22,981 nt of DNA from a virus (Duplodnaviria > Heunggongvirae > Uroviricota > Caudoviricetes): IMG/VR virus record IMGVR_UViG_3300047480_000504. The stretch is one strand, 5' to 3'. The position numbers were made by a program, and so were the translations under genes. Shown piece by piece: positions 3 to 21,593 of the stretch. Each line of letters opens with the position of its first letter. Positions within the stretch are counted from its first letter, which is position 1. A model generated the notes under the pieces. It saw only the letters and a list, made by a program, of their open reading frames with translations. It was not told the DNA's origin and did not search any database.

Positions 3-1574
3 CCTCGGCGTGGCAACTCCGACGATAATGCAGCCGCCGGAGCGTATGTTGCTGTTCCTAAAGCTGGCATGCACGACTGGATTGGTTCCATGGACATTAA
101 CAGTCTGTATCCTTCCCTGATCCGTGCGTTGAATATGAGTCCCGAAACCATCATTGGACAAGTACGCCAGACTCGCACACTAGCTGGTATTGACGAGTTT
201 ATTGCAGAAGGCAAGGGCATCGCAGAATTCTGGGAAGGCAAGTTTGCTTGCTTTGAATACGAATCTGTAATGAATCGCGACATCGGGCAAACTGAGATCA
301 TTGACTGGACAGACGGTACAAGCACACAAATGAGTTCAGCACAAGTATATGACTATGTGTTCCACGGTGGTCAGCCATTGATGATCTCGGGCAATGGTAC
401 TATCTTCAAGTACGATACCAAGGGTGTTATTCCAGGCCTGCTCGAACGCTGGTATGCTGAACGTAAAGAGCTACAAAAGAAGGCCAAAGAAGCATACGGT
501 ACGGACATGTATGACTTCTGGGACAAGCGACAGCTGGTTAAGAAGATTAACTTGAACTCGGCTTATGGTGCGTTGTTGAACGCAGGTAGTCGATTCTTTG
601 ATCAACGACTAGGACAAAGTACTACACTGTGCGGACGTCTTGTTGCACGTCACATGGCAAGTCAAGTTAATGACTGCTTGACAGGCGAGTATGACCATAT
701 GGGCAAAGCCATTATCTATGGTGATACTGACTCTGTTTACTTCTCGGCTGTACCAGTATTCAAAGAACAAATTGAACGTGGTGATATTGATTGGACTGTA
801 GACAAGATCATTGAGCTATATGATGCTATTAGTGACCAAGTAAACGGTACATTCCCGGCGTTTATGAATCGTGCATTCAATGCTCCAGCGAGTCAAGGCG
901 AGATTATCAAAGCAGGTCGAGAAGTAGTTGCCTCTAAAGGCATTTACATGACCAAGAAGCGTTATGCTGTTCTTATTACAGATAAGGAAGGCAAGCGCAA
1001 AGATAAAGATGGATCCAAAGGTGAATTGAAGGCCATGGGTCTGGATATGAAGCGAGCCGATACTCCAGAGTTCATGCAACGTTTCTTGGAAGAAGCACTT
1101 ACTATGACGCTAGAAGGTGCAAGCATGGAAACAGTCATGGCTCGTGTTAAACAATTCCGTGAGGAGTTTAAGAGCCGGCCAGGCTGGGAAAAGGGCACAC
1201 CCAAGCGTGTTAATAATCTAACTAAGCATACAGATACTTACAAGAAAACAGGCAAGTGTGGAGTTGGACATGCAATGGCGGCTATTAACTGGAACCGTAT
1301 TAAAGAAGCGTATGGCGATAGACGTAGTATGGACATCACCGATGGACAGAAAGCTATTGTGTGTAAGCTAAAGAATAATCCGCTCCAAATCAATTCAATT
1401 GCTTATCCAATTGATGAGATGAACCTGCCAGACTGGTTCAAGGAGCTACCATTTGATCATGGTGCGATGGAAGAAAAGATCATCGACTCCAAGATCGATA
1501 ACCTTTTGGGTGTACTTAAATGGGACCTAAATCTAAGTAAGGATAGAGGATTTCTAGATGACTTGTTTTCCTAA
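3..1574 (+). CDS. polB: Family B DNA polymerase, T4 gp43/RB69-like (5'-truncated by window edge)
   Basis: The frame is open from base 3 (…AAGAYVAVPKAGMHDW). It has motif A SMDINSLYPS, motif B KKINLNSAYG, motif C YGDTDS and KKRYA. The C-terminus FLDDLFS resembles the T4-type clamp-binding tail. Confidence 0.97.
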   Translation, partial: PRRGNSDDNAAAGAYVAVPKAGMHDWIGSMDINSLYPSLIRALNMSPETIIGQVRQTRTLAGIDEFIAEGKGIAEFWEGKFACFEYESVMNRDIGQTEIIDWTDGTSTQMSSAQVYDYVFHGGQPLMISGNGTIFKYDTKGVIPGLLERWYAERKELQKKAKEAYGTDMYDFWDKRQLVKKINLNSAYGALLNAGSRFFDQRLGQSTTLCGRLVARHMASQVNDCLTGEYDHMGKAIIYGDTDSVYFSAVPVFKEQIERGDIDWTVDKIIELYDAISDQVNGTFPAFMNRAFNAPASQGEIIKAGREVVASKGIYMTKKRYAVLITDKEGKRKDKDGSKGELKAMGLDMKRADTPEFMQRFLEEALTMTLEGASMETVMARVKQFREEFKSRPGWEKGTPKRVNNLTKHTDTYKKTGKCGVGHAMAAINWNRIKEAYGDRRSMDITDGQKAIVCKLKNNPLQINSIAYPIDEMNLPDWFKELPFDHGAMEEKIIDSKIDNLLGVLKWDLNLSKDRGFLDDLFS

Positions 1575-1579
1575 ATCCC

Positions 1580-1608
1580 TTGACTTTAAAAACTTTTTAA
1601 ACTATAAT
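1580..1608 (+). promoter_or_regulatory. sigma70-type promoter for the clamp/transglycosylase operon
   Basis: TTGACT (1580-1585), 17-bp spacer, TATAAT (1603-1608). SD GGAGA at 1621-1625 precedes ATG 1635. Confidence 0.9.
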
Positions 1609-1634
1609 TGTAACATAACTGGAGAACCACAACA

Positions 1635-2354
1635 ATGCTAAAAGATATTGTGCTTGATGTAGCAAAAAACATCGCAAGTCTAGGAACCTTTGACGAGATC
1701 CTAGTTGAACAAGACGCTGATACTACTAAGTTTACAGCGTATCCCGAGGACTCTACTATTACTGTTCTTGCTAACAGCAAGGCCAAAGTAGATGAACTGC
1801 CAGATGCGTTTGGTATGCTTAACTTGGGCTTCCTAGTAGGTCTAAGCGGCTTGTATCGTTCTGAAGATAGCAAAGTAGCAACTGGCACAAACAACAAGAG
1901 TGAAATTGATCGCTTGGCGTTCAGCGGCGTTGATGGAAACAAAGACGAGTATCGTTTGACTCCTACTAACTTGATGAAGACCAAGAGCCGTTCATTCAAG
2001 GGCACTACATGGGATGTGGTTGTTAAGCCAGCCGCAAACAAGATTAGTGAACTTAGCCAACGTGCAGGCTTGTATGCTAGCATTGATCCTAACTTGGTAG
2101 CAAGTACCGACAATGGTAAGTTGATCTTTACATTTGGTGGTTCAGCTGGCGGTGGCCACAGCGGTAAGTTTGTGTTTGCAGATACTACACAGACACTAAA
2201 GCGTCCAGTGACACTTCCTATTCAAAGTCTGTTGCTTGCACTCAAGACAGCAAGTCAAGGTACTCCTGTCATTAGTATCTCAGAAAAGGTTGCCAAGATC
2301 GAATTCGACTCTGGCGTTATTGCATACGAATACCTGGTAATTGCACAGCAATGA
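1635..2354 (+). CDS. Putative DNA polymerase sliding clamp (gp45-like)
   Basis: 239 aa, clamp-like size, directly after polB whose tail looks like a clamp-binding peptide. Segments FGMLNL, FKGTTWDV, FTFG and DSGVIAYEY resemble the clamp-like family of large phages as I recall it. Confidence 0.7.
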   Translation: MLKDIVLDVAKNIASLGTFDEILVEQDADTTKFTAYPEDSTITVLANSKAKVDELPDAFGMLNLGFLVGLSGLYRSEDSKVATGTNNKSEIDRLAFSGVDGNKDEYRLTPTNLMKTKSRSFKGTTWDVVVKPAANKISELSQRAGLYASIDPNLVASTDNGKLIFTFGGSAGGGHSGKFVFADTTQTLKRPVTLPIQSLLLALKTASQGTPVISISEKVAKIEFDSGVIAYEYLVIAQQ

Positions 2355-3919
2355 GCATCGACTTAACTAAACGAGCAATGGAAGGCAATTATGCCTTCTA
2401 CTTGCCGGCTATTAGTGGATTCTACACTAAGACGCTTGGTAAGATTGCTAGCGACCCTGGTTTTGTGCCGCCAGGTCGTGCGCCAGCTAAGTTTGAAAAG
2501 GGCATCGAAGGCGTAAACTTTCTTGACCCCGAAAACTCTTACTATCATTATGGCGTAGCATTGTACTCAGCAGGACATGCTGATCGTAACTTAACTCGTT
2601 GTGACGATAAAGAGCCAATGATTCACAAACGTGATCGCAATAAGACTATTATTGTAGGTGACAGTTCTGGTTTCCAATTGGCAACTGGCGTTATTAAGAT
2701 GGATTGGAAGAACATTAAGGGTGCCGAAGGTGATAAGTTCCGTGAGGAAATCTTACGCTATCTTGAGCATACTTCAGATTGGTCTATGACACTTGACGTT
2801 CCTGCATTTGCCGCAGTGCCGCCGCTAAGTGCCAAAACTGGTTTGACCAAGTTTGAAGATACGCTAGACATTTCAGTACACAACCTTCATTACTTTATGA
2901 AGCATCGTGTGCCGGGTGCTACAAAGTTCTTAAACGTTATCTCTGGTAGTACACCTGATAACTCCAAGCTGTGGTACGATACTATCAAACACTTTAGTAA
3001 GCCCGAGTCTGTTAAGGAAATGGGTTATGCTGAAGATCGTACTCTAGAAGGTTGGGCGTTTGCTGGTATCAACATGAAGCACATGCCTAGTGTGCTGAAT
3101 CGCTTGCTAGACTTAATTGAAGATGATCTAATTGCTGATAAGGATTGGATTCACTTCTTGGGGATTGGACGACTAAAGTGGGCTTGCTACCTGACTTCAA
3201 TCAAGCGCCAACTGCAAAAGCATTACAATCCTAATATCAACATTAGCTTTGACGCGGCAAGTCCGTTTGTTGCGGCAGGTGGTTATGCATTGTCTTACAA
3301 TTACAACTACTTTACTCCTAACAAGCTAACGTACTCTATGAGTAAGAGTGTTGATAACAAGGCGTTGAAGAACTCTAAGTTGGAAATGCCGCACCAAGGT
3401 CCTATTATGGAACGATTGGTAGCCGGTGATATTTGTTATCTTGGTCCTAACGATCCAAATAAGAATGGTAAGGTTGGTAAAACATCGTGGGACACTTTGT
3501 CTTACTTGTTTATCATGGCCCATAATGTTTACAACCATATTCAAGCCGTGCAAGAAACCCTACGTCTTGCTGATATTGAGTATGCACGTAATCCAAACGT
3601 AGACTATCGTGATGCAACAGGATACGGTAAGAAGGCTCCTAACCTAAGTGAGTTTATTCCAAACGACATCCTGTACTTTAACAACTTTGTTGAAGTGTTG
3701 TTTGATCCAGCTACACCAATGGCAGACAAGCGTCAAATGATTTCGGACAATACAACGTTCTTGAATTCGATTAGTTTTGGTGGTGTCGAAGCCGCACGTA
3801 AGGCCAAGAGCAATGACATCTTTGATACCGCAGAAGAAGTACCTGATGATGACGATATGGCAAGTTTGGACAATGAAAAGTTAATGGACCTTGAAGGAGA
3901 CCTTGACAATGACAATTGA
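2351..3919 (+). CDS. TGT-fold guanine transglycosylase-like protein (DpdA-like)
   Basis: Four TGT-like motifs occur in order: GDSSGFQ (cf. DSGGYQ, catalytic Asp), MTLDVP (cf. MAFDEC), HFLGIG (cf. YLMGVG) and ISFDAASP (cf. MFDCVLP, second catalytic Asp), followed by MAHN. ATGA overlap with the clamp stop. Confidence 0.8.
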   Translation: MSIDLTKRAMEGNYAFYLPAISGFYTKTLGKIASDPGFVPPGRAPAKFEKGIEGVNFLDPENSYYHYGVALYSAGHADRNLTRCDDKEPMIHKRDRNKTIIVGDSSGFQLATGVIKMDWKNIKGAEGDKFREEILRYLEHTSDWSMTLDVPAFAAVPPLSAKTGLTKFEDTLDISVHNLHYFMKHRVPGATKFLNVISGSTPDNSKLWYDTIKHFSKPESVKEMGYAEDRTLEGWAFAGINMKHMPSVLNRLLDLIEDDLIADKDWIHFLGIGRLKWACYLTSIKRQLQKHYNPNINISFDAASPFVAAGGYALSYNYNYFTPNKLTYSMSKSVDNKALKNSKLEMPHQGPIMERLVAGDICYLGPNDPNKNGKVGKTSWDTLSYLFIMAHNVYNHIQAVQETLRLADIEYARNPNVDYRDATGYGKKAPNLSEFIPNDILYFNNFVEVLFDPATPMADKRQMISDNTTFLNSISFGGVEAARKAKSNDIFDTAEEVPDDDDMASLDNEKLMDLEGDLDNDN

Positions 3920-4427
3920 ACGTGTTGCGCCGGATTTCTTTACAGGAGTAGAAGTTGAAAACTCTCCTGCCAAAGGTATGCGGACCTTGTTTGTAGTTGG
4001 ACTTCAACCAGTTGACACAATCATTACTAATGTGTTACACTCTAATGCACAGCACGTTTATATTGGTGCTAATATGAGCTTACACAATTTAGCAAATGAT
4101 GATCACGATTCGTGGCGGGAATGGGATAGGATGATTGAAGGTGTGCTGGAATCTGGTGCAGTTGACTATGTTACAGTGGACTTTACTTCGGCCCAAGTTG
4201 AAGGCTTTTTAGAAAGTCTTGCAAGCGAAGATAATCGTGTAATCCCAATGATTTCGGTCAAACTACCCTATACGAAATTGCTTAACTACAATACAACAAT
4301 TAAAATCGACGATAAGGATTTTAATGCAACGAACCCCGGTGTATGGTGTCATTCTTTACATGACCTTATGGACAGAGAGACATTTACACCTTGGCATGCC
4401 TATGTAGGCGATAACCCTGTAAACTAA
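3909..4427 (+). CDS. Conserved-looking phage protein of unknown function (172 aa), coupled to the transglycosylase
   Basis: SD AAGGAG at 3894-3899 favours ATG 3909 over the TTG at 3891. Overlaps the TGT-like stop. Motifs FTGVEVE, TLFVVG, IKIDDKDF and GVWCH. Confidence 0.75.
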   Translation: MTIERVAPDFFTGVEVENSPAKGMRTLFVVGLQPVDTIITNVLHSNAQHVYIGANMSLHNLANDDHDSWREWDRMIEGVLESGAVDYVTVDFTSAQVEGFLESLASEDNRVIPMISVKLPYTKLLNYNTTIKIDDKDFNATNPGVWCHSLHDLMDRETFTPWHAYVGDNPVN

Positions 4428-4437
4428 GGAAACAAAA

Positions 4438-4635
4438 ATGAGCGATGATGAAGTTAAAGTTGGTAGCTTTAATAAGCCAACAAAGAAGCCAGTCCCAGGA
4501 CGTGCAGTAGCAGAAGGTGCAACGGCTCCAACTGTAGAAGAACTAAATGAAAAGTTAGACACAGTATTGAAGCATCTCCAAGCTATTGACTGGAAGATGT
4601 GGGTCTACTTAAAAGCCAACAACTACATTGACTAA
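4438..4635 (+). CDS. Small hypothetical protein (65 aa) with a short coiled-coil-like segment
   Basis: SD AAGGA upstream; fills the operon gap. Confidence 0.65.
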   Translation: MSDDEVKVGSFNKPTKKPVPGRAVAEGATAPTVEELNEKLDTVLKHLQAIDWKMWVYLKANNYID

Positions 4636-4643
4636 GGAGTAGC

Positions 4644-5015
4644 ATGTCACAAGACATGATTTGGGTTACCTTCCGCAAGGAAGGAGTGCATAGGTATCCT
4701 GCCGCAGGGCATGATCCTAAGCTGGCAAGTGGTGATGAGTATGATGTGAGTTTTTTACAATACCCACATCGACACATGTTCCACTTTAAAGTGTATCTCG
4801 AAGTGTTTCATGATGATCGAGATGTTGAGTTTATTCAGTTCAAGCGTTGGCTCGAAAACCTTTATAACAAGGGCACGTTAGAATTGGATTATAAGTCCTG
4901 TGAAATGATGGCAGATGACCTGTACAAGGAAATCTCCGCAAAGTATACAGATCGGAAAGTTTGGATTGAAGTTTCGGAGGATGGCGAAAATGGATGCCTC
5001 AAGCAATACGCTTAA
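4644..5015 (+). CDS. QueD-like T-fold protein, DpdL-like (candidate 7-carboxy-7-deazaguanine decarboxylase)
   Basis: 123 aa. LQYPHRHMFHF matches the LxxxHRHxF signature I recall for DpdL rather than QueD CxxxHGH. Also has DVEFIQFK, SCEMMA (cf. QueD T/SxE) and IEVSEDGENG. SD AAGGAG. Confidence 0.7.
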   Translation: MSQDMIWVTFRKEGVHRYPAAGHDPKLASGDEYDVSFLQYPHRHMFHFKVYLEVFHDDRDVEFIQFKRWLENLYNKGTLELDYKSCEMMADDLYKEISAKYTDRKVWIEVSEDGENGCLKQYA

Positions 5016-5481
5016 CAATCACGTTAAGTTTAACGATCGCGGCAATCGCGATAACCGTGGCCCACGTGAACAGCGTGGTTACAATAACAACAGCCAGTAC
5101 CAACCTCGTCGTGCTGGCTTAAACATCAACCACATCAAGTTTGACTTGCTGAAAATTAGCGAGTTGTATGATGGCGTGTTGAACGCAGACCTAGGGCACT
5201 TGCCACTAGATTTCTACAATCAGTACCTGACTGATTTGTGCAAGAGCGGTATGATCTTCTCATACTCTATTGATACACCAGAACTTCGTACACACGAAGC
5301 AAGCGGTGACCGTAGCTTTACATATACGGTTAATATCCAAAGCGGGCGCGATCGCGCAAGCAAGGCTCTTAAGATCCACGTTGGATTGTACAAGAGCGCA
5401 TGGTGCCAGGAAACTGTGCATAGTGCCGATGGCATGTGTTGCATGCCAAAACGCTTAGACCGCTTCACAGAGGAAGCGTAA
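4990..5481 (+). CDS. Hypothetical protein (about 163 aa) with an R/N-rich low-complexity N-terminus
   Basis: SD GGAGG at 4976-4980 with 9-nt spacing favours ATG 4990. TAATG coupling to the next gene. Confidence 0.65.
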   Translation: MDASSNTLNNHVKFNDRGNRDNRGPREQRGYNNNSQYQPRRAGLNINHIKFDLLKISELYDGVLNADLGHLPLDFYNQYLTDLCKSGMIFSYSIDTPELRTHEASGDRSFTYTVNIQSGRDRASKALKIHVGLYKSAWCQETVHSADGMCCMPKRLDRFTEEA

Positions 5482-6692
5482 TGCGTAAGCTCTTCTATAT
5501 GGGCCTTGAGCCCTATGAAGGGCGATACACTCTCCAACTCCAGCAATGGAACGAGAGTGTATTTCGCCGCCGTGGCATTGACTATGTTGTAGTGCCAGGA
5601 CAGACTATTGACAATACCAAAGCAATTAGTGTGGGACAAGTGTTAGACGCACATGGCCGAAGCTTCTTTGGTATGAGTCAAATGATGAACTTGGTTCAAA
5701 TGATGCGTAGTGGTGAAGTTACTGGCCAAGACGTTATCTACTTTGAAGACATGTTCCAACCTGGTATCGAATCCCTTCCATACATTATGGATCAGATTCC
5801 ACACCACCAACGTCCCCGTGTTTTTGTACGTTGCCTTGCACAAGCTATTGATCCCGATGACTTTGTTCATGTATGGGGCATGGGTAAGTGGATGAGCCTG
5901 TATGAAAAGATGGTCAATGAGTTTGCTACTGTATTGGCTACCAATGAAGAAATGGTTGCTCACATGCGTATCGCAGGATACGAAGCACCTATCTATAACA
6001 TCAGTGGTTTAGCATTTGGTAAAGATGAAGTACTTGCTCGTGTAAACAATCAAGTTAAGCCGTGGGCTGAACGTGCCGACAGAGTTGTATTTGCCGCAAG
6101 GTTTGACCAAGAGAAGCAACCTGACTTCTTTATGGACTTGATCGAAGCATGGCATCGTAATAACATGCCTTGGGTTGAGTTTGCGGTACTGAGTGGTGGT
6201 CCGTTGCGCAGTAACAATCCTAAATATCTTGAACGTGCGGCGCAGTTAGAAGAACGTGGCATGCTAAAGATCTACAAGGATTTACAAAAGAATCAGTACT
6301 ATAATATTGTCAATGACAGTAAGGTGCTGTTCAATTGTGCGTTGCAAGACTGGGTAAGCAACACTGTAAGTGAAGCAGACACATTAGGCTGTAATGTGCT
6401 GTATCCTGCGTATCGTAGCTTTCCAGAAACGTTTGCAAACGATCACACAAGAATGTATGTGCCGTGGAGCCAACAAGATGCGTTTGACAAATTGACAACA
6501 TTGTTAAAAGCTCCACATCCTGCTATGGGCAAGATTAGTGATTGGAACAATGGTACCATTGATCGCATTTGCGACATTATGGAAACTGCTGGCACAGTTG
6601 CAGAAGGTGGTATGAGTTGTAAGGCCGCTCAGTGGAATCGTGCAGGGAATCGATACCGCGATCATGTTGCAGGAGCAAAGTATAAACTATGA
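5481..6692 (+). CDS. GT-B fold glycosyltransferase (GT4-like)
   Basis: Start inferred from the TAATG overlap and SD GAGG. Has FAARFDQEKQP and QDWVSNTVSEADTLGCNVLYP (a D-X7-E version of the EX7E motif). Confidence 0.85.
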   Translation: MRKLFYMGLEPYEGRYTLQLQQWNESVFRRRGIDYVVVPGQTIDNTKAISVGQVLDAHGRSFFGMSQMMNLVQMMRSGEVTGQDVIYFEDMFQPGIESLPYIMDQIPHHQRPRVFVRCLAQAIDPDDFVHVWGMGKWMSLYEKMVNEFATVLATNEEMVAHMRIAGYEAPIYNISGLAFGKDEVLARVNNQVKPWAERADRVVFAARFDQEKQPDFFMDLIEAWHRNNMPWVEFAVLSGGPLRSNNPKYLERAAQLEERGMLKIYKDLQKNQYYNIVNDSKVLFNCALQDWVSNTVSEADTLGCNVLYPAYRSFPETFANDHTRMYVPWSQQDAFDKLTTLLKAPHPAMGKISDWNNGTIDRICDIMETAGTVAEGGMSCKAAQWNRAGNRYRDHVAGAKYKL

Positions 6693-7684
6693 CAGATAAA
6701 TGGGTCGCCATTACAGGTTGCAATGGTTACATTGGCGGGCAGACTGCATTACGATTTAAAGACCTTGGGTACAAAGTCCTGGGCGTAGATCGTAATGCTA
6801 CTGCTCCTTGGATTACCGAGCAACTAGATCAAGTTATTAAAGGAGACTTTAATAACGCAATGTTCATCAATTCTTTTATTGACAAGAACCCAGTCGCACT
6901 TATTCATATCGCAGGTACAAGTCTAGTGGGACCTAGTATGACAGACCCGGGTCCTTACTATGCTAACAATGTAGGCAACACTGCCAAGCTATTAGCATCT
7001 TTGGCTGAACGTGGCTGGCACAAGACTGTGGTGTTTTCGTCAAGTGCCGCAGTGTATGGCGAGCCTACTGTTAATACACTTACTGAATATAGTCCAACAC
7101 TTCCAATTAGTCCTTATGGGCAAAGCAAGTTGATGGCCGAACAAGTTCTGCGTGATTGTGCAAAAGGTTATGGTTTTAAAACAGTAGCCCTTCGTTATTT
7201 TAATGCATGTGGTGCCGACTCAAAGGTTCGTCATGGACAGTTAAAAGCCGCAACACATGTGATTGCTCGCATCATGGAGACTATTGTCAATAAAGGTGTG
7301 TTCACTTTAAACGGCACCGATTATCCTACAGCTGATGGTACTTGTGTTCGCGACTACTTGCACGTTGAGGATATTGCCGAAGCACATTATCTAGCTACCA
7401 AGTGGGGCGAAGGTGTTGATAAAGGTACTTCAATTGAATTGAATCTTGGCTCTGGTAAAGGTGTAAGCATTACAGAAGTTATCAATTCAGTTGAACGTAT
7501 CACTGGCCGTACTGTATTGGTACATAAAGGTCCTGCGCGAGCTGGTGATCCAGCCACATTAGTTGCCTATGCTGACAAAGCAAAGAAGACCATGGGATGG
7601 ACTCCTGCGAACAGTTCAATTGACAACATTGTAAAGACTGCATGGTCTTGGTATAACTCGGCCGAGTATAGGGGCAGAGCATGA
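6689..7684 (+). CDS. galE: NAD-dependent sugar-nucleotide epimerase, UDP-glucose 4-epimerase-like
   Basis: ITGCNGYIG Rossmann motif, SSSAAVYG, catalytic YGQSK, LRYFNACGA and DGTCVRDYLHVEDIA. Confidence 0.9.
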   Translation: MTDKWVAITGCNGYIGGQTALRFKDLGYKVLGVDRNATAPWITEQLDQVIKGDFNNAMFINSFIDKNPVALIHIAGTSLVGPSMTDPGPYYANNVGNTAKLLASLAERGWHKTVVFSSSAAVYGEPTVNTLTEYSPTLPISPYGQSKLMAEQVLRDCAKGYGFKTVALRYFNACGADSKVRHGQLKAATHVIARIMETIVNKGVFTLNGTDYPTADGTCVRDYLHVEDIAEAHYLATKWGEGVDKGTSIELNLGSGKGVSITEVINSVERITGRTVLVHKGPARAGDPATLVAYADKAKKTMGWTPANSSIDNIVKTAWSWYNSAEYRGRA

Positions 7685-8118
7685 AGATTGGATTTACTTG
7701 TTCTACATTTGACTTGCTACATGCGGGCCACGTGTCTATGCTACAAGAAGCTAAGACACAGTGCGACTATCTAATTTGCGGATTGCAAAACGATCCAACA
7801 TTAGATCGTCCTACTAAAAATAGACCTGTGCAAAGTATTGTTGAACGCCAAATGCAACTCAAAGGTAGTCGATACGTTGACGAAGTTTGGGTTTACAATA
7901 CTGAAAAGGATCTCGAAGACTTGCTATTGACTTTGCCAATTGATGTACGTATACTTGGAGTAGAGTACGAAGGCAAAGAGTTTACTGGTCGAGAAATTTG
8001 TCACAAGCGAGGCATTGATTTATACTTTAACGGTAGGGATCATAGTTTTAGCTCTAGCAACTTGCGTCGACGAGTATACGAAGCAGAAGCAAACAAGGAT
8101 AACAATGAAAATAAATGA
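7681..8118 (+). CDS. Cytidylyltransferase-like protein (TagD/glycerol-3-phosphate cytidylyltransferase family)
   Basis: TFDLLHAGH (HxGH), YVDEV and C-terminal RDHSFSSS. Confidence 0.88.
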   Translation: MKIGFTCSTFDLLHAGHVSMLQEAKTQCDYLICGLQNDPTLDRPTKNRPVQSIVERQMQLKGSRYVDEVWVYNTEKDLEDLLLTLPIDVRILGVEYEGKEFTGREICHKRGIDLYFNGRDHSFSSSNLRRRVYEAEANKDNNENK

Positions 8119-8533
8119 ACTAGAAAACAGCATCAACGATGCTTGGTTCAAGTCTGGTAGCTTTGAAACATTTAAGAAGCCAGCACAAGAAAAATATAAA
8201 GTTGCTCAACAAGCAGGAACTGTACAGACTTTAGAAGGTCCTGTACAGTACGAAGCTGGTCATTATATTATGACTGGTCCCAAAGGCGAGCAGTATCCTA
8301 TTACACCAGAAAAGTTTCGCAGTCTCAAAGATGACTTGGGTAATGGCATTGCTACTCCTAAGAAGATTATGAAGATTGCTAAACTTGCTGACCATGACGG
8401 TGTTATACATACATCGTGGGGCGACTTAAACTACACTGCTGGTAATGACTATATTGTACGTCATGGCGCAGGCGACTATGGTGCTGTAAAGAAAGATATC
8501 TTTGCACAAACATACGACACATCAAAGGCATAA
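8105..8533 (+). CDS. PGDYG-like protein with an internal duplication
   Basis: Two repeats, TLEG…YEAGHYIMTGPKGEQYP…KF and TSWGDLNYTAGNDYIVRHGAGDYG…IFAQTY. Start at ATG 8105 is inferred. Confidence 0.65.
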   Translation: MKINELENSINDAWFKSGSFETFKKPAQEKYKVAQQAGTVQTLEGPVQYEAGHYIMTGPKGEQYPITPEKFRSLKDDLGNGIATPKKIMKIAKLADHDGVIHTSWGDLNYTAGNDYIVRHGAGDYGAVKKDIFAQTYDTSKA

Positions 8534-8534
8534 T

Positions 8535-8699
8535 ATGCAAGTAAGAGTAAAAGAAAATCCAGAAGAGTTTGGTAAGTGCGGTTGCGGCCGCAGTCCCAAC
8601 GGCAAGTGTATTGGCTGGCACGGCTTGACTGAAGAACAGTATCAAGAAGCATTAAAGAAATACGAAGAACAATTATTTGATAACGGAGCAGGAATATGA
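8535..8699 (+). CDS. Small CDGSH/NEET-like Fe-S or zinc-binding protein (54 aa)
   Basis: CGCGRSPNGKCIGWH resembles the C-x-C-x2-S…C-D-G-S-H 3Cys-1His motif, one residue shorter. Confidence 0.6.
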   Translation: MQVRVKENPEEFGKCGCGRSPNGKCIGWHGLTEEQYQEALKKYEEQLFDNGAGI

Positions 8700-8776
8700 T
8701 TATTGATGTACCAGAGGACTGGGTACCTTTTATACCCGATGAACAAGCAATGGGACAATGGTCCCTACCACAATAA
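8696..8776 (+). CDS. Possible 26-aa microprotein (MIIDVPEDWVPFIPDEQAMGQWSLPQ), not in the ORF track
   Basis: ATGA overlap with the upstream stop, purine-rich GGAGCAGGA upstream, and it exactly fills the gap before glutaredoxin. Confidence 0.45.
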   Translation: MIIDVPEDWVPFIPDEQAMGQWSLPQ

Positions 8777-8785
8777 GGAATAAAA

Positions 8786-9031
8786 ATGGAAATCGTAGTT
8801 TATAGCAAGGATCACTGTCCTTATTGCGACCAAGCAAAAGCATGGTTAGGTAGTAAAGGGTTTGCCTTTACAGAACACAAAGTAGGCTATAATGGCTTTA
8901 CTCGTGAAAACTTATTAGAAGCAGTACCAACTGCCCGAACTGTTCCCCAAATTATTATTGATGGAAATCTTGTTGGCGGCTGGGACGACTTACGTAAGAG
9001 TGAGTTCTATGCCAACGCTAACAAGGGATAA
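8786..9031 (+). CDS. grx: Glutaredoxin (dithiol)
   Basis: CPYC active site, TVPQI and IDGNLVGGWDDL. Confidence 0.95.
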   Translation: MEIVVYSKDHCPYCDQAKAWLGSKGFAFTEHKVGYNGFTRENLLEAVPTARTVPQIIIDGNLVGGWDDLRKSEFYANANKG

Positions 9032-9290
9032 GTTCTATTCAGCAAAGACTGCCGCCATGGTGTATACATTAAAGGACATTAGGCGGTGGTTAATTGATAA
9101 CTGCAAGAATCGTTGGACAGCAACTGACTACAAAGGTGACCCGTTTAACTGGCGCAAATTGTCAAAGGTAGAATCAGCTAAACACTCACATGAGATGTTT
9201 GATATTACCATTATGGTTCACTTTAAAAAGCCAGAAGATTTAATGCTTTATTTGCTAACTTGGCCAAGTGAAGTCTTGCTTAATCCCTAA
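9009..9290 (+). CDS. Hypothetical protein (about 93 aa)
   Basis: The ORF fills the gap. Start at ATG 9009 (MPTLTR) is inferred to minimise overlap. Confidence 0.6.
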   Translation: MPTLTRDKFYSAKTAAMVYTLKDIRRWLIDNCKNRWTATDYKGDPFNWRKLSKVESAKHSHEMFDITIMVHFKKPEDLMLYLLTWPSEVLLNP

Positions 9291-9304
9291 ATAGATGTTA
9301 CAAT
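9276..9304 (+). promoter_or_regulatory. Putative folE promoter (sigma70-type with extended -10) overlapping a TAAATA late-type box
   Basis: TTGCTT (9276-9281), 17 bp, TACAAT (9299-9304) preceded by TGn. TAAATA at 9288-9293. Confidence 0.6.
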
Positions 9305-9346
9305 AAACAATATGACATCCACGTCATTAACTCGGAGAAAACAAAA

Positions 9347-10066
9347 TTGACAGAACTACATTATAAAGAAGAAGACGGCAAGCCACTTAGCCAGGTTATC
9401 CGCAGTCGCCTTAAACAGGATAACAAACGTTTCTGGGCAGGTGACAACATTAGCGAATACATTAGCGATGTTGAAAAGGATCAACTAATCAATGAAGCTA
9501 CAGTCGCGTTCGAACAAGTGCTCGACACTTTGCTCATTGATCGCGAAACAGATCCAAACTCTAAAGGTACTGCAAGACGACTTGCCAAGATGTACTACAA
9601 TGAAATCATGGCAGGACGATATGACCCAGCACCAGACGCAACAGCATTTCCAAACGACTCGGCGGACCGTTACGAAGGTATGTTGGTTGTTCGCAGTGAG
9701 CTTCGCAGTATGTGTAGCCATCATCACCAACCCGTTAGTGGCGTTGCTTATATTGGCATTATTGCCGCTGAGAAACTTATTGGACTCTCAAAGTACACAC
9801 GTATCGCCCAGTGGTGTGCAAGACGAGGTACTCTCCAGGAGGAACTTGCTAATGACATTGCTAGGGAAATCCAAAAAGCCACAGATGCAAAAGACGTAGG
9901 CGTTTATGTACAGGCTGTACATGGATGCTGTGAGAACCGGGGCATTATGGCACACTCTAGCTTGACACAGACTACAGTGCTCAAAGGTGCTTTCCAAAGT
10001 GATCAAAGCACAAAGAAAGAGTTTTTTGACAACATCAAACTCCAACAAGACTTTGCTCCACGATGA
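9347..10066 (+). CDS. folE: GTP cyclohydrolase I
   Basis: RSMCSHHH, GLSKYTRI, LQEEL and HGCCENRG zinc/active-site motifs. TTG start with SD GGAG at 9334-9337. Confidence 0.95.
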   Translation: MTELHYKEEDGKPLSQVIRSRLKQDNKRFWAGDNISEYISDVEKDQLINEATVAFEQVLDTLLIDRETDPNSKGTARRLAKMYYNEIMAGRYDPAPDATAFPNDSADRYEGMLVVRSELRSMCSHHHQPVSGVAYIGIIAAEKLIGLSKYTRIAQWCARRGTLQEELANDIAREIQKATDAKDVGVYVQAVHGCCENRGIMAHSSLTQTTVLKGAFQSDQSTKKEFFDNIKLQQDFAPR

Positions 10067-10743
10067 CCTACTGCCTAGTCCCAATGACTGTTGAGGAAAT
10101 TCAGCAACTTGTTGGGCCAACATTTGCTGACACATTTCACACTGAATTTGAAAAAGTTCTTGAACCATTGCGAAAGTATATTGATCAAGGTCGGCCTCTT
10201 AGCATGGGTAAAGAGCTATGGGAATATATAGTAACAGATAGTATTCCAGATTCAGAATGGTGCGGTGCTGGCAAAGGCATTGCTGATGTACGTATAGGTG
10301 AAAGTATTGCTGATGTAAAGAGTCTACAGCGTGGTAATACTACTACCACAGAAGCTAGTTTACATCAAAAGTTACTCAAGAAAGACAGTGCCGAATACTA
10401 CGCAACATTTGATATAGAATACCTTTGGAATCTCTTGGTTGGCGGCTGGTTGGAAAAAGTTAATTCAGTTGAACAGTATTACTTGTTGGCTATTATTAGA
10501 GACAAAAAAACTTTACAGTGCTCATTGATTGGTTTTCGAAAGCTAGATGTAAACCCAGTCTTTGACATTGACAAATGTACTCTTAGCAAGAAGGAAGCGT
10601 CAGTTACAGTAACCTCGTTAGCTGATCCCAAACTTGTTCAGATAAAATTATATCGAGGCAAAACAAGGATGGAAATTAAATTTAAAAAAGCAGTTTTTTC
10701 TAATCCCAAGTACAGCTTTCCTATATATAAAGGAATCAAATAA
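10063..10743 (+). CDS. Putative PD-(D/E)XK nuclease (restriction-endonuclease-like)
   Basis: ELWE helix followed by IADVRIGESIADVKSL (D…D-x-K). Lys-rich C-terminal half. ATGA overlap with folE. Confidence 0.5.
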   Translation: MTYCLVPMTVEEIQQLVGPTFADTFHTEFEKVLEPLRKYIDQGRPLSMGKELWEYIVTDSIPDSEWCGAGKGIADVRIGESIADVKSLQRGNTTTTEASLHQKLLKKDSAEYYATFDIEYLWNLLVGGWLEKVNSVEQYYLLAIIRDKKTLQCSLIGFRKLDVNPVFDIDKCTLSKKEASVTVTSLADPKLVQIKLYRGKTRMEIKFKKAVFSNPKYSFPIYKGIK

Positions 10744-11201
10744 TGGATAATAGCGATAAAGACAAATTAAAAGATGTGCTATCAAGTATAGATCCTGTTG
10801 AGTTTAAGTGGGACGAGTCTAACATGTCTGTTGGTGTTATTGCACAAGAGATTGGTGCCATTGGTGCTAGCGATACGTACATTATGAACGATACCAGTGC
10901 TATCGATCTTGGTAACATAACTATCGGACCAAGCAGTTGGGCCAATGGTAGTAGCATATCGTTCAGCAGTGGCGACACACTTAATGCAGGTACTACTCAG
11001 TATGGTAAAACAACTATCACCACTGCTAAGAGCACAATAGACATTGACGAGCTAGCTGACATGATGGAAACACTTAAAAAGCGTTTGCTTATCTTGGCAC
11101 CCAACTTTGAAATGCATGAAAAGTATCCTATGCTTAAAGAACTGTACGATGAGTACAAAGCAATGGAACGACTGTTAAGCGGACCCGATACTGATGAATA
11201 A
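10743..11201 (+). CDS. Hypothetical protein with an N-terminal peptidase S74 (tail-spike chaperone)-like fragment
   Basis: IDPVEFKW…VGVIAQEI, a Ser/Gly/Thr-rich linker and a helical C-terminus (KKRLLILAPNFE…LKELYDEYK). Confidence 0.6.
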   Translation: MDNSDKDKLKDVLSSIDPVEFKWDESNMSVGVIAQEIGAIGASDTYIMNDTSAIDLGNITIGPSSWANGSSISFSSGDTLNAGTTQYGKTTITTAKSTIDIDELADMMETLKKRLLILAPNFEMHEKYPMLKELYDEYKAMERLLSGPDTDE

Positions 11202-11694
11202 ACTATCACTTTCTTGGCATGATATTGAATGGCATGTGCAGACCATTGCTCGTAATATGCAACTAGATGGTTGGCGCCCAGACTTGATCATCGGAGTAGA
11301 CCGCGGCGGTCTTGCTGCCAGTATTATGCTTAGTCATTACCTTGCTGTACCACATACAACTGTTAAGGTGTCCTTGCGTGATACACCGGATTCCGAATCT
11401 CTGCTATGGGCACCAGATGACGTTATTGCAGGCAAGAAAATACTGTTAGTAGATGACATTAATGATCAAGGCTCAACGCAAGAATGGCTCAAAGCAGACT
11501 GGGCCTCCAGTGTGGCAGGAATAGAGGTTGACTTTATTGACAAATTCTGGCATAATAGTGTTCGTTGGGCAAGTCTTGTTGAAAACGAAAGTAGCAAAGA
11601 GTACAGTGATTATTATGGCACTGCTATCAACAAACTTGAACGTGATATTTGGATTGACTTTCCTTGGGAATCTTTTTGGAGTAGGGACACATGA
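11194..11694 (+). CDS. Type I phosphoribosyltransferase (Gpt/Hpt-like)
   Basis: IIGVDRGGL and the PRPP-binding loop ILLVDDINDQGST. C-terminal WIDFPWE. Confidence 0.9.
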   Translation: MNKLSLSWHDIEWHVQTIARNMQLDGWRPDLIIGVDRGGLAASIMLSHYLAVPHTTVKVSLRDTPDSESLLWAPDDVIAGKKILLVDDINDQGSTQEWLKADWASSVAGIEVDFIDKFWHNSVRWASLVENESSKEYSDYYGTAINKLERDIWIDFPWESFWSRDT

Positions 11695-12105: not shown

Positions 12106-12423
12106 ATGACATTTGTAGTCACTGAAAGCTGTATTAAATGCAAGTACACTGATTGTGTAGATGTGTGCCCTGTTGATTGCTTCAAAGAAGGTCCTAACTT
12201 TTTAGTTATCGACCCTGACAATTGCATCGACTGTGCAGTGTGCGTTCCAGAATGTCCAGTTGATGCTATTGTGCCCGGACACGAAGTTAAGGATGAGTTT
12301 TGGACTAATATCAATGCTCGACTTGCTGTTGGCTGGCCAGTTATCAACAAAAAGAAAAGTCCGTTGCCCGAGGCCGAAGAGTTCAAAGCAATTAAAGATA
12401 AACGTCATCTTTTAGAAGAATGA
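12106..12423 (+). CDS. fdxA: Ferredoxin, FdxA/Azotobacter FdI-like (7Fe type)
   Basis: [14 protein letters not shown] and [12 protein letters not shown], plus the C-terminal extension (WPVI…K.PLPEAE) typical of this family. Confidence 0.93.
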
Positions 12424-13164: not shown

Positions 13165-13956
13165 ATGACAAACATTATTATTCAAGGCAAGGGCATTGTT
13201 GGACAATCAACAGCATTATTTTTACGAGAGTTCTTACCAAATGCAAACGTTCAATTCAATGATCCATATAAGCAAGTAATCCTACCAACAGACGCTTGGT
13301 CAACTGCTGACTATGTTATTGTTTGTGTAAACACAGACTTAGACGAGTCATTGCCATTACCAGAAAACAATACAAAAAATGTCAATGATGCTATCAACGA
13401 AGCACTAGCAAACGGATTCAAAGGTACTGTGGTTGTTCGCAGTACACTAGGCATGAGTGCAATTAAAGATTACACTGAACAACTGGGCCAGCATTTGTTA
13501 GTATGGCCCGAATACATTAGAGAAGCCACATGGAGAGAAGATTCAGTAAATCCAAAGTTTATTGTACTCGGTGGTGAACCTGCAGAAGCCTTTGCAGACT
13601 TGCTAACAGAATACAAAGGACCAGCATTTATCACTGATCCAATGGAAGCGATGGTTGCTAAACTTTCTACCAATACCTTCTTGGCAATGAAAGTTATTTT
13701 TGCCAATCAAGTTGAGCAGTTATGCAAGGCCGTTGGAGCAGACTATAGCATTGTCCGTGTCATGCTAGAGAATGAAGGACGATTAGGATCAAGCCATTGG
13801 TCCGTTCCGGGCTTTGATGGTGTTCCTGGCTATTCGGGTAAATGCTTTCCCAAAGATGTACAAACGTTTGAAACTGCATTGGTCAAGTCTGGAATCCACG
13901 TGGACCTGATTCGTGCTATCACAGATCTAAATAACGAAATGAGAAACAATGGCTAA
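13165..13956 (+). CDS. UDP-glucose/GDP-mannose dehydrogenase family, short form lacking the C-terminal domain
   Basis: GKGIVG Rossmann motif, PEYIRE, KLSTNTFLAMKVIFAN and GYSGKCFPKD (catalytic Cys). Only 263 aa. Confidence 0.85.
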   Translation: MTNIIIQGKGIVGQSTALFLREFLPNANVQFNDPYKQVILPTDAWSTADYVIVCVNTDLDESLPLPENNTKNVNDAINEALANGFKGTVVVRSTLGMSAIKDYTEQLGQHLLVWPEYIREATWREDSVNPKFIVLGGEPAEAFADLLTEYKGPAFITDPMEAMVAKLSTNTFLAMKVIFANQVEQLCKAVGADYSIVRVMLENEGRLGSSHWSVPGFDGVPGYSGKCFPKDVQTFETALVKSGIHVDLIRAITDLNNEMRNNG

Positions 13957-16016: not shown

Positions 16017-16278
16017 ACTTTACGAAATTATGAACATCCTCTCAGAGGAATGTGCCGAGGTGGTACAGGCAGTAAGCAAGTGCAATCGCTTTGGTTTGGA
16101 TAACTTCAAGCCCGGTAAACCCCTAACTAATGCACAACACTTAGAAGGTGAAATTGGTGATTTACTTGCCATGGTAGATCTGTTAAAATTAAAGGGCGTT
16201 GTAACAGATGCAGGCCTCGAAGCCGCAAAGTTAGCCAAGATTGAAAAATTAAAGAAATGGTCAAATATCTATGAATGA
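16006..16278 (+). CDS. MazG-like NTP pyrophosphohydrolase (single domain)
   Basis: EECAEVVQAVSK…RFG…LEGEIGDLLAM (EExxE…ExxD). Start at ATG 16006 is inferred. Confidence 0.8.
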   Translation: MDSKLYEIMNILSEECAEVVQAVSKCNRFGLDNFKPGKPLTNAQHLEGEIGDLLAMVDLLKLKGVVTDAGLEAAKLAKIEKLKKWSNIYE

Positions 16279-17131
16279 ATTTAAAGTAAGCGAAGTGTTT
16301 TACTCTGCACAGGGCGAAGGACGTTTTATTGGCGTACCGAGTGTGTTTTTCCGTACATTTGGTTGCAACTTTAAATGCCCGGGCTTTGGATTACCTGCTG
16401 GCGAAAAGACCTCGGAGCCAGATGAGATTGGTAAGGTGGTACACTTATACAAGACATTCAATGACTTGCCATTAGCACAAACTGGATGTGACAGCTATGC
16501 AAGCTGGCATCCAGCGTTCAAGCATCTAAGTCCAACATACTCAGTTGAACAAAGTATTGATGCCATGCTAGACTTGACTCCCAACAATCATTGGATGCAG
16601 GCTAATGGTAATGATGTACATTTGGTTATCACAGGTGGTGAACCACTATTGGGGTGGCAAATGCTTTACCCAACATTGTTAAGCAATCCTCGCATGAAGG
16701 ATCTGCGTAACCTGACATTTGAAACTAACGGCACCCAGTACTTGCACAAAGAGTTCAAAGACTTCTTGTCTGACAACTATCACTTGCCAAAAGATAACAT
16801 TACATTTAGTGTAAGTCCTAAGTTAAGTGCTAGCGGAGAGAAGTGGGAAGATGCAGTTAAGCCAGAAGTTGTTGTTGAATATCAACAACGTGGTCATGTG
16901 TACCTGAAGTTTGTCATTGACAACATCCTCGACTTCAACGAAGTTGATCGCGCTGTTAAAGAATATCGTTCTGCTGGATTCTATGGACAAGTATATGTTA
17001 TGCCAGTTGGTGGCACTGACAAAGCATACTTTTCAAATACACGCCATATTGCCGACGAAGCACTGGCACGTGGCTATCGTTACAGCCCACGACTGCACGT
17101 TGATATTTGGTCAAACGGTTGGGGCAAGTAA
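16271..17131 (+). CDS. queE: 7-carboxy-7-deazaguanine synthase (radical SAM)
   Basis: SEVFYSAQGEG, VFFRTFGCNFKC…GCDS, VITGGEP, ETNGT, VSPKL and YSPRLH. Confidence 0.9.
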   Translation: MNEFKVSEVFYSAQGEGRFIGVPSVFFRTFGCNFKCPGFGLPAGEKTSEPDEIGKVVHLYKTFNDLPLAQTGCDSYASWHPAFKHLSPTYSVEQSIDAMLDLTPNNHWMQANGNDVHLVITGGEPLLGWQMLYPTLLSNPRMKDLRNLTFETNGTQYLHKEFKDFLSDNYHLPKDNITFSVSPKLSASGEKWEDAVKPEVVVEYQQRGHVYLKFVIDNILDFNEVDRAVKEYRSAGFYGQVYVMPVGGTDKAYFSNTRHIADEALARGYRYSPRLHVDIWSNGWGK

Positions 17132-18256: not shown

Positions 18257-19240
18257 ATGAGTTACTTAATCGTTGATGCCGCTAATCTTTTCTTTCGCGC
18301 ACGGCACGTGATCCGATCTGGCGACCCAGAAGAACGTGTGGCCATGAGCTATCACATTATTCTGGCGTCGGTGCTACGCCAATGGCGCGATCGTCAGGGC
18401 AATCATGTTGTATTCTGCTTTGAGGGCCGAAGCTGGCGCAAGGACGTTTACAAGCCCTACAAGGCCAATCGTGCAGAAGGTCGTGCTAAACAAACTCCTA
18501 AAGAAGCAGAAGAAGAAAAACTGTTTTGGGAATCCTTTGACAAGTTTTACGAATACATTAGTACTAAGACTAACGTAACTGTTCTTAAGAATCCTGTATG
18601 CGAAGCTGACGATTTCATTGCACGTTGGATTCAGTTGCACAAAGACGATAACCATATTATTGTTTCCAGCGACACAGACTTTGAACAACTTATTGCTCCT
18701 AATGTGCAATTGTTCAATGGCATCACTGGCGTGCTTACTACGCACGAAGGTTACTTTGATGAAAAGGGTAAGCCAGTAAAAGACAAGAAAACAAAAGAAG
18801 TAAAGGCTGCACCCGAACCAGAATGGTTGCTGTTTGAAAAGTGCATGCGTGGTGATACATCCGATAATGTCTTTTCTGCGTTTCCTGGTGTGCGTACTAA
18901 AGGCACAAAGAACAAGGTAGGCTTACAAGAAGCATTTGCTGATCGCAATAACAAAGGCTTTATGTGGAACAATCTCATGCTTCAGCGTTGGACCGACCAC
19001 GAGGGCGTCGAACACTTGGTGCGTGACGATTATGAACGCAATCGTGCTATTATTGATCTAACTGCACAACCTGATCATATCAAAGCCGAGCTTGATGCTA
19101 CTATTGCTGAGGCTGTACAAAAAGAGCGTAATCCAAGCGTAGGCCCACACTTTATGAAGTTTTGTGGTAAGTACAATTTACAAAAGTCCTCAGATAATGC
19201 TCAACAACACACTGAATGGCTGGCGGCCAGCTATAACTAA
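18257..19240 (+). CDS. rnh: 5'-3' exonuclease / flap endonuclease (T4 RNase H-like)
   Basis: LIVDAANLFFR, FEG.SWRK.YK.YKANR, EADD, SSDTDF and GDTSDN motifs. Confidence 0.92.
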   Translation: MSYLIVDAANLFFRARHVIRSGDPEERVAMSYHIILASVLRQWRDRQGNHVVFCFEGRSWRKDVYKPYKANRAEGRAKQTPKEAEEEKLFWESFDKFYEYISTKTNVTVLKNPVCEADDFIARWIQLHKDDNHIIVSSDTDFEQLIAPNVQLFNGITGVLTTHEGYFDEKGKPVKDKKTKEVKAAPEPEWLLFEKCMRGDTSDNVFSAFPGVRTKGTKNKVGLQEAFADRNNKGFMWNNLMLQRWTDHEGVEHLVRDDYERNRAIIDLTAQPDHIKAELDATIAEAVQKERNPSVGPHFMKFCGKYNLQKSSDNAQQHTEWLAASYN

Positions 19241-19550: not shown

Positions 19551-19576
19551 TTGGCTCATTAAACACATACTTTTGA

Positions 19577-19582
19577 TAAATA
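19577..19582 (+). promoter_or_regulatory. TAAATA late-type promoter box 5 nt before the endonuclease ATG
   Basis: GATAAATAAAAGTATG resembles the T4 late TATAAATA. The hexamer also occurs inside genes (e.g. 6221), so specificity is limited. Confidence 0.5.
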
Positions 19583-19587
19583 AAAGT

Positions 19588-21584: not shown

Positions 21585-21593
21585 AGTAACACT

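Follow-up and report, generated by a model that had tools for sequence, protein, structure and literature searches.

A 22,981-nt stretch of a Caudoviricetes genome (IMG/VR record IMGVR_UViG_3300047480_000504; "the window" below denotes this stretch at its full length) very likely holds the opening portion of a phage module for 7-deazaguanine modification of DNA, situated inside a replication block. A glycosyltransferase (GT) encoded there is probably a functional part of the module, and we consider the chances evenly balanced that the virion DNA carries a sugar-bearing deazaguanine. To our knowledge, the 7-deazaguanine bases of phage DNA are all sugar-free, and the sugar-bearing DNA bases are all pyrimidines, namely hydroxymethylcytosine (hmC), hydroxymethyluracil (hmU) derivatives, and base J. 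A glycosylated deazaguanine, if present, would constitute a new class of DNA chemistry and the first known sugar-bearing purine in any DNA. Our literature search returned no description of glycosylated 7-deazaguanine in phage DNA and no mention of this GT family. The genes at the center of the proposal are listed below by window coordinates and strand.

2351-3919 (+): predicted TGT-fold, DpdA-like base-exchange enzyme, 522 residues, assigned from fold and conserved catalytic-type Asp residues
4644-5015 (+): DpdL-type T-fold protein, a QueD paralogue of 123 residues and proposed 7-carboxy-7-deazaguanine (CDG) decarboxylase, assigned from its motif and phrog_17812
5481-6692 (+): putative deazaguanine-module GT of the retaining GT4 type with a GT-B fold, 403 residues, assigned from fold and motifs
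6689-7684 (+): UDP-glucose 4-epimerase GalE (TIGR01179 at 307.4 bits against a cut-off of 262.3; PF01370 at 1e-45)
9347-10066 (+): FolE, GTP cyclohydrolase I, the first step to 7-deazaguanine (PF01227 at 1e-39; NCBIfam FolE models)
16271-17131 (+): divergent QueE, CDG synthase, assigned from QueE homology

In the proposed pathway, GTP would be converted to CDG by FolE, the divergent QueE, and a QueD whose gene lies elsewhere in the genome. Without QueC, the DpdL-type T-fold enzyme would convert CDG to a dDG-type 7-deazaguanine, as happens in phage phiST, and the large TGT-fold enzyme would swap guanine in phage DNA for this base. The dedicated retaining GT4-type GT, which in this phage is translationally coupled to GalE and has further sugar-nucleotide enzymes encoded alongside, would put a sugar on the deazaguanine. 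The resulting sugar-bearing G replacement in virion DNA would blunt restriction.

Linkage of the GT family to deazaguanine genes

We examined samples of loci drawn by similarity to the GT, TGT-like, and DpdL genes themselves. Among 80 GT-centered loci, a TGT-like gene was present in 75, DpdL in 77, FolE in 65, and u172, a conserved gene of the window located between the TGT-like gene and DpdL, in 73. Nearly all of the 80 loci fetched with the TGT-like profile read PolB, clamp, TGT-like, u172, DpdL, followed by an open reading frame (ORF) of 330-430 residues, and iterative searching identified the ORF after DpdL as a GT-family member in every case. The synteny PolB-clamp-TGT-like-u172-DpdL-GT recurs in well over 100 loci, and the GT gene is often translationally coupled to DpdL or to the TGT-like gene. 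Independent variation of the GT and TGT-like genes across relatives, which the preliminary description of this DNA had named as an outcome that would tell against a glycosylated base, was not seen. A GT-family gene lay in the module in 124 of 124 loci with enough flanking sequence (121 downstream of DpdL and three just upstream), while the DpdL-centered loci with enough flank contained the GT in 63 of 63 and the TGT-like gene in 58 of 58. Within the sampled loci, the GT family was never found apart from a TGT-like or DpdL gene.

The family also occurs within or next to the deazaguanine genes in six unrelated cultured lineages whose backbones differ considerably, which makes the proposal directly testable, as these phages carry the gene set. 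Their arrangements are as follows.

PA5oct: TGT-like, GT, DpdL
ACP17: DpdA-like, GT, DpdL, QueE
T4-like cyanophage BUCT-ZZ01: QueE, phosphoribosyltransferase (PRTase), QueD, FolE, second GT, DpdA-like, DpdL, GT (UTS52032, 72% identical to that of the window)
Phosso: clamp, u172-like, DpdL, GT, FolE
Xanthomonas phage X1: GT, TGT, DpdL, QueE
BCSR5: GT in the module

The second GT of BUCT-ZZ01 (UTS52035, L002:7022-8365) is an unrelated GT1_4-type glycosyltransferase of 447 residues encoded directly upstream of the DpdA-like gene, which suggests two sugar steps in that phage.

Whole-record searches of the DpdL phages phiST, RHph_I1_18, Bakedbeans, Ahp1, D479, and MA9V-3 returned no GT-family member. 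Because six DpdL phages lack the GT and one of them, phiST, has plain dDG, the distribution follows the pattern of an optional decorating step added to the DpdL pathway. In the Vibrio phage Bakedbeans, the DpdL match falls in the C-terminal third of an annotated 383-residue ORF (gp176, L174:6212-7363), which may reflect either a gene fusion or a misannotation.

A cellular genome collection yielded 13 records with the GT family, and a TGT-like gene adjoined the GT in 12 of them. In ten of the 13, the sequence is clearly this same phage module, placed in metagenome-assembled genomes by binning. TGT-like and GT pairs without DpdL were located on a Pelagibacterium chromosome (L269:6080-9032), an Azospirillum scaffold (L267:7950-10685), and a Rhizobiaceae metagenome-assembled genome (L266:7977-10545). 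The GT therefore appears tied to the base-exchange enzyme and not to DpdL. The Pelagibacterium pair adjoins a resolvase, a patatin-like protein, and an OLD-family AAA_15+TOPRIM nuclease; the Azospirillum pair adjoins an integrase-like gene, an AAA_15/21 ATPase, and DUF6734. These surroundings suggest a cellular use of the pair, which may belong to a defense or mobile island.

Fold and conservation of the GT

The predicted structure of the window GT (pLDDT 73.5) matched glycogen synthase, MshA, WaaG, BshA, and PimA in a Foldseek search of the PDB, with E values of 4e-12 to 1e-9. VIA structure matches reached Z scores of 21-23 with an rmsd of 3.2-3.9 over 305-340 aligned residues. At the sequence level, the Pfam match to PF00534 was weak (20.5 bits versus a gathering cut-off of 26.4); PF00534 and PF13692 are both found in the precomputed annotation of relatives at 72-77% identity, among the top-scoring matches listed. 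More than 8000 homologues were found, and large environmental phages very commonly carry the family.

The family divides into type I, of about 400 residues and including the window protein, and type II, of about 350-370 residues, with a mutual identity of about 22%. The two types have 30 invariant positions in common. In the C-terminal domain these include F204, R207, E211, K212, Q213, Q289, and E298, and an N-terminal LE...RYT motif is also invariant across both types. A profile match to the GT4 enzyme WlaC covers the GRxxxEKG-like R207-Q213 motif. We infer that the C-terminal set forms the nucleotide-sugar site, with equivalence to the EX7E motif. Since the invariant motif residues are kept across both subfamilies, the enzyme looks active. 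A GalE gene comes after the GT in 53 of 78 type I loci and in 5 of 30 type II loci, which hints that UDP-galactose or UDP-GalNAc is the type I donor.

The N-terminal motif had raised the possibility of a particular resemblance to the T4 alpha-GT, which we rejected because the 50 best solved-structure matches shown include no T4 enzyme; the "DNA alpha-GT" of cyanophage S-TIM5 ranked only 28th among the viral fold matches. A complex prediction of the GT with DpdL scored 0.00, which we count neither for nor against binding.

A divergent TGT-fold enzyme

The 522-residue product of 2351-3919 had no match in sequence searches of Pfam, NCBIfam, PHROGs, and PDB sequences, nor did a profile search against PDB sequences find anything; only fold search and profile-profile comparison placed it. 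Its AlphaFold2 model has a pLDDT of 92.9, and the top 50 Foldseek matches in the PDB are all TGT or ArcTGT (probability 1.0, E about 1e-6, TM by target 0.46-0.52). With hhalign, the family scored 97% against the DpdA-like protein of ACP17, 94% against that of BUCT-ZZ01, and a weak 75% against phiST DpdA3. The protein is 53% identical to PA5oct EST35_0316 and has more than 2000 close homologues, which form 733 clusters at 50% identity.

We aligned 63 members of the family, down to 25% identity. Residues D104, S105, and G107 (DSxGFQ, which reads DSSGFQ in the window) and D301 (SxDxSSP) are invariant, D149 (LDxP) is nearly so, and H268, L270, and G271 are conserved. By motif likeness rather than residue-level structural alignment, we take D104, D149, H268-G271, and D301 to correspond to the Asp of TGT DSGGFQ, the substrate-binding Asp, the LMGVG strand, and the nucleophile Asp, respectively. 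A long acidic C-terminal tail (EEVPDDDD...DLDNDN, 3830-3919) completes the protein. On its modeled fold, it is a divergent member of the TGT/DpdA superfamily, for which exchange of guanine in DNA is predicted.

The gene varies in a discontinuous manner. Among 24 loci with a PolB at least 70% identical to that of the window, the TGT-like gene was either 87-99% or 40-41% identical, with none between, and the distant allele occurred in 9 of the 24. FolE in the same loci was 30-35% or 80-100% identical, independent of the TGT-like allele. In this comparison, which set L007, L014, L015, L026, L027, L030, L046, L075, and L141 against L008-L013 and L017-L023, the pattern looks like cassette-style exchange inside the deazaguanine module.

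DpdL and the precursor pathway

DpdL is defined by LxxxHRHxF in place of the CxxxHGH of QueD (Cui et al. 2023, PMC10516641). The window protein fits this definition with LQYPHRHMF at residues 38-46, and the motif is kept in 103 of 104 distinct DpdL homologues from the fetched loci. The protein is 54% identical to the DpdL of ACP17, 53% to that of PA5oct, and 31% to that of phiST. It aligns with canonical QueDs, which have C...HG(H/Y), through common His and Glu residues. Decarboxylation of CDG by DpdL is a proposed activity even for the founding member (PMC10516641).

For QueE, the product of 16271-17131 shares 46% identity with the protein annotated as QueE in BUCT-ZZ01 and 29% with PA5oct QueE. 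Its best NCBIfam matches are five QueE models, with E values of 9e-13 to 9e-7 and scores that all lie far under the cut-offs; the Pfam Radical_SAM match reaches only E 0.026, and the N-terminus carries a QGEG...GCN motif. An alternative QueE candidate at 10063-10743 was rejected, being an ORF without radical-SAM features.

Completeness of the pathway was judged from related records rather than from the window's own genome. In PA5oct and in two related records, G002 (86% complete) and G003 (complete), we found one canonical QueD each, and searches of these three for QueC were negative save for a weak partial match in one record. As judged from gene content, the module is a QueC-less route of the DpdL type, such as yields dDG in phiST. 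Three further genes in the same region could serve this pathway.

8786-9031: glutaredoxin, embedded in the module
11194-11694 (+): Gpt-like purine PRTase (PF00156 at 1.5e-10; a xanthine PRTase model is the best NCBIfam match)
12106-12423 (+): 7Fe-type ferredoxin (DUF3470-type, PF11953 and PF00037), present in 34 of 80 loci

The ferredoxin and glutaredoxin may act as electron donors for the radical-SAM QueE. Homologues of the PRTase sit in the modules of PA5oct and BUCT-ZZ01, and the enzyme probably recycles guanine released by base exchange into GTP.

Replication block and gene chain

The module is embedded among replication genes, for which the following features are relevant.

1580-1608 (+): sigma-70-like promoter candidate TTGACT-17-TATAAT, a consensus match only, at 11 of 12 positions
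1635-2354 (+): probable gp45-type sliding clamp, 239 residues (phrog_12062)
18257-19240 (+): RNase H
22181 toward the window end: AAA ATPase

All large ORFs from position 3 to about 20700 are on the + strand, and the 5' end of the window falls within a family B DNA polymerase (PolB, PF00136) with its stop at 1574. The Pseudomonas jumbo phage PA5oct (Wroclawvirus) holds the same order of PolB, clamp-like gene, TGT-like gene, DpdL, PRTase, QueE, RNase H, and AAA ATPase, and its syntenic block also includes a member of the GT family. Because of this common gene order, we identify the window, on sequence grounds, as the replication block of a large phage resembling PA5oct. PA5oct differs in that its GT (EST35_0317, 353 residues, type II) precedes DpdL and in that its block lacks u172, GalE, and FolE. 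Contigs from uncultured viruses, reaching 285-365 kb, are the records nearest to the window.

Clamp identity is moderately supported. The protein is 26% identical to PA5oct EST35_0314, its language-model neighbors in the protein Atlas include gp45-slide_C clusters, and in Phosso the homologous protein carries a sliding-clamp annotation; a Pfam search gave no match. The C-terminus of PolB (...GFLDDLFS, 1536-1574) presumably resembles the clamp-binding tails of T4-type polymerases.

The preliminary description had proposed that a promoter at 1580 precedes a tightly packed chain of ten genes, from the clamp to a PGDYG-like gene, with overlapping junctions, no terminator, and folE and queE downstream, and that this operon may specify a glycosylated deazaguanine. 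The layout was borne out. The site at 1580 is the best-scoring promoter-like site in 1400-9400 and is located in the 60-nt interval between PolB and the clamp gene, the only real gap in the chain, where GGAGA precedes the ATG at 1635. As a class, promoter-like sites were not above chance (22 versus 15.9 +/- 4.6 expected), and the 1580 site is therefore only a candidate. Start/stop overlaps of the ATGA type occur at 2351, 6689, and 7681 and a TAATG at 5481, with gaps of 8-10 nt or short overlaps at the remaining junctions. Terminator-like sites were at chance level and every one was weak (5 versus 5.6 +/- 2.5 expected). The genes named in the preliminary description are where and what it said, with moderate support for the clamp, and FolE and the divergent QueE do lie downstream. 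Transcription of the ten genes as a single message is plausible.

What did not hold was the implied view of the ten genes as one functional unit: the nucleotidyltransferase, the PGDYG gene, and the ORFs u65 and u166 are confined to near relatives, and we rejected that part of the proposal. Gene identities, conserved synteny, GT linkage, and the reported restriction resistance of PA5oct support the remainder in part. Co-transcription with the clamp, which had been offered as a sign of a DNA substrate, is weak evidence for one. The GT family is acidic, and its fold is nearest to small-molecule GT4 enzymes.

Comparison with known systems

Phage phiST encodes FolE, QueD, QueE, DpdL, and DpdA3 without QueC, and its DNA contains plain dDG (PMC10516641). 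Like the window, with completeness again taken from relatives, it combines a QueC-less FolE/QueD/QueE set with an LxxxHRHxF QueD paralogue and an adjoining divergent TGT-superfamily enzyme, and its modification genes lie beside replication genes. In contrast, the GT is found nowhere in the phiST record; the window adds the GT, GalE, PRTase, ferredoxin, and u172. DpdA3 has 259 residues versus 522 for the window TGT-like protein, to which it bears the remote hhalign likeness given above.

PA5oct DNA resists G-containing restriction enzymes, and the chemistry of its modified base is unsolved (PMC12191111). A deazaguanine synthesis and incorporation system is listed for this phage (Iyer et al. 2021, PMC7824862), and published work on it names QueE and PTPS but not the GT (PMC7824862, PMC12191111). 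When ACP17 DpdA and DpdL were expressed in E. coli, no dDG was obtained, and further enzymes were suggested as needed (Cui et al. 2023, PMC10516641). In ACP17 the GT gene is situated between the DpdA-like gene and DpdL. Both the outcome for ACP17 in E. coli and the modified G in PA5oct would fit a missing GT step.

Other systems share single features with the proposed scheme. The alpha- and beta-GTs of T4 glucosylate hmC in DNA. As proposed here, the window GT would resemble them as a phage GT-B enzyme that transfers a sugar from a UDP-sugar onto a non-canonical base, as an optional, anti-restriction addition. The T4 acceptor hmC, however, is made at the nucleotide level, whereas the acceptor here would be a base-exchanged purine analogue, and we detected no sequence relation between the T4 enzymes and the window GT. 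QTMAN, also a GT-B enzyme, mannosylates queuosine in tRNA, and both mannosyl-Q and galactosyl-Q occur in eukaryotic tRNA. The likeness lies in the placement of a hexose on a 7-deazaguanine derivative already in nucleic acid. For QTMAN, the accepting group is the hydroxyl on the cyclopentenediol of queuosine in tRNA; a side chain of this kind is not predicted for the window, where the nucleic acid would be DNA. In the bacterial Dpd system, as in the window, a TGT-family enzyme inserts a base that a second enzyme tailors (DpdA with preQ0, then DpdC to give ADG). Tailoring there is by the amidohydrolase-type DpdC, whereas here it would be by a glycosyltransferase acting on a QueC-independent base. 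No DpdB or DpdD-K gene was seen.

Acceptor of the GT and alternative explanations

The simplest reading is that the GT decorates deazaguanine. We infer that deazaguanine is the acceptor and that the sugar is retained in DNA. Several observations weigh against this reading. With respect to the base-exchange enzyme, the window protein gives no match to Pfam PF01702 at its threshold, a family that only 4 of 63 relatives match (best E 0.0058), and the CxCxxC...H zinc site of TGT is absent, the family alignment having no invariant or nearly invariant Cys. The nearest solved folds of the GT are small-molecule GT4 enzymes (BshA, MshA, tetrahydrobiopterin glucosyltransferase, SenB) rather than DNA enzymes, and the family is acidic, with a median isoelectric point of 5.5 overall and 5.2 for the acceptor domain. 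The observation that the GT is never seen elsewhere is biased by the similarity-based sampling of loci, and half of the cultured DpdL lineages are without the GT. Finally, 7-deazaguanine has no hydroxyl; attachment of a sugar would require an N- or C-glycosidic linkage, an ester to CDG, or some other DpdL product, and the chemistry is not known for any phage with this GT.

The virion DNA could contain plain dDG, as in phiST, with the GT, GalE, nucleotidyltransferase, and dehydrogenase serving virion or other proteins, host envelope polymers, or another nucleic-acid target. Such a division of labor would account for the variability of the sugar genes (nucleotidyltransferase in 33, PGDYG in 17, and dehydrogenase in 29 of 80 loci) and the occurrence of the nucleotidyltransferase in unrelated Vibrio phages; phiST attains full dDG without any GT, and glycans and small molecules are common substrates of GT4 enzymes. 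We nevertheless judge it unlikely, given that the GT family lies inside deazaguanine genes, often with translational coupling, in six unrelated cultured lineages and in every sampled locus, and that ACP17 and X1 have no other sugar genes nearby. Glycosylation of hmC or hmU is likewise an unlikely function: a ThyA-like hydroxymethylase (PF00303) is absent from the GT-carrying relatives G002 and G003, the latter complete, for which reason we rejected this target; the gene is present in PA5oct and G005. A different possibility is that the GT modifies a free pterin or deazapurine intermediate and that the sugar then leaves, having served as a transient handle, as shielding from host enzymes, or in a separate metabolite, so that the inserted base is unglycosylated. 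The closest solved folds and the acidic acceptor domain would fit, as would the position of the GT beside a protein with the T-fold, which binds pterins and purines (PMC10516641). The match to UDP-glucose:tetrahydrobiopterin glucosyltransferase (Z 22, rmsd 3.5, 310 residues) is tied with others at Z 21-23, and neighbors within one Z unit cannot identify an acceptor. The prospects of this explanation appear slim, as the cellular GT pairs with a TGT-like gene with no DpdL or pterin enzyme nearby and no sugar-removing enzyme is evident in the module.

Modification could also precede replication, with the Gpt-like PRTase making a deazaguanine nucleotide that is reduced, phosphorylated, and incorporated by PolB, while the TGT-like protein acts elsewhere, for example on tRNA. 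In toyocamycin biosynthesis, preformed deazapurine bases are ribosylated with PRPP, which lends this route some credit, as do the conservation of the PRTase with the module in the window, PA5oct, and BUCT-ZZ01 and the adjacency of the module to the polymerase. It is very improbable all the same: the PRTase is missing from many TGT-like loci and from ACP17 and X1, guanine salvage accounts for it equally well, and a DpdA-family transglycosylase is found in every virus with 7-deazaguanine DNA, for which post-replicative insertion has been argued (Cui et al. 2023, PMC10516641).

For the preferred reading, in which deazaguanine is glycosylated, the order of steps can be considered separately. Because the GT is acidic and its closest folds are small-molecule GT4 enzymes, we lean slightly toward addition of the sugar to the free base, followed by insertion by the large TGT-like enzyme. 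A fuller and more tentative version, which we regard as somewhat unlikely in its entirety, holds that the GT4 enzyme makes glycosyl-7-deazaguanine on the free base, with the sugar N- or C-linked or joined as an ester to the carboxy form, that the enlarged TGT-fold enzyme swaps it whole into duplex DNA, that the sugars vary among phages through the GT subfamilies and accessory genes, and that bacteria use the pair in defense or mobile islands to mark their own DNA. If glycosylation of the base is correct, it bears on the specificity of restriction and type IV defense, on nanopore base-calling, and on therapy candidates such as PA5oct.

Accessory genes and other features

The remaining genes of the module are as follows.

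3909-4427 (+): u172, an acidic conserved protein, always between the TGT-like gene and DpdL in the clade
4438-4635 (+): u65, a small ORF of 65 residues, in 26 of 80 loci at a mean identity of 62%, near relatives only
about 4981-5481, start at 4981 or 4990 (+): u166, in 33 of 80 loci at a mean identity of 68%, near clade only
7681-8118 (+): cytidylyl/adenylyltransferase-like nucleotidyltransferase (PF01467 at 9e-12), in 33 of 80 loci
8105-8533 (+): PGDYG-domain protein (PF14083 at 31.3 bits against a cut-off of 27), in 17 of 80 loci
13165-13956 (+): short nucleotide-sugar dehydrogenase-like protein, 263 residues (PF00984 at 4.5e-18), in 29 of 80 loci

With more than 6000 homologues, none of them named, u172 is widespread. 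Pfam, PDB profile, and protein Atlas searches gave no lead to its function, and its Phosso homologue bears the unverified annotation "glycosylase". Library searches with u166 gave no family match. The nucleotidyltransferase matches the RfaE domain II and TagD models below their cut-offs. The dehydrogenase scores 117 bits against TIGR03026, also below cut-off, and has the NAD-binding and central domains without the C-terminal UDP-binding domain; it may be truncated or a short variant. By their patchy distribution, the nucleotidyltransferase, PGDYG protein, dehydrogenase, u65, and u166 would be variable passengers or local tailoring functions rather than core components.

Two ORFs at the 3' side of the window stand apart from the module. 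An ORF with a NUMOD3 motif, resembling homing endonucleases, lies 3' of RNase H at 19573-20085 and was found in 0 of the 160 related loci compared. The sole large minus-strand ORF (20738-21697) encodes collagen triple-helix repeats with a weakly C1q-like C-terminus, and its product may be a fiber or decoration protein.

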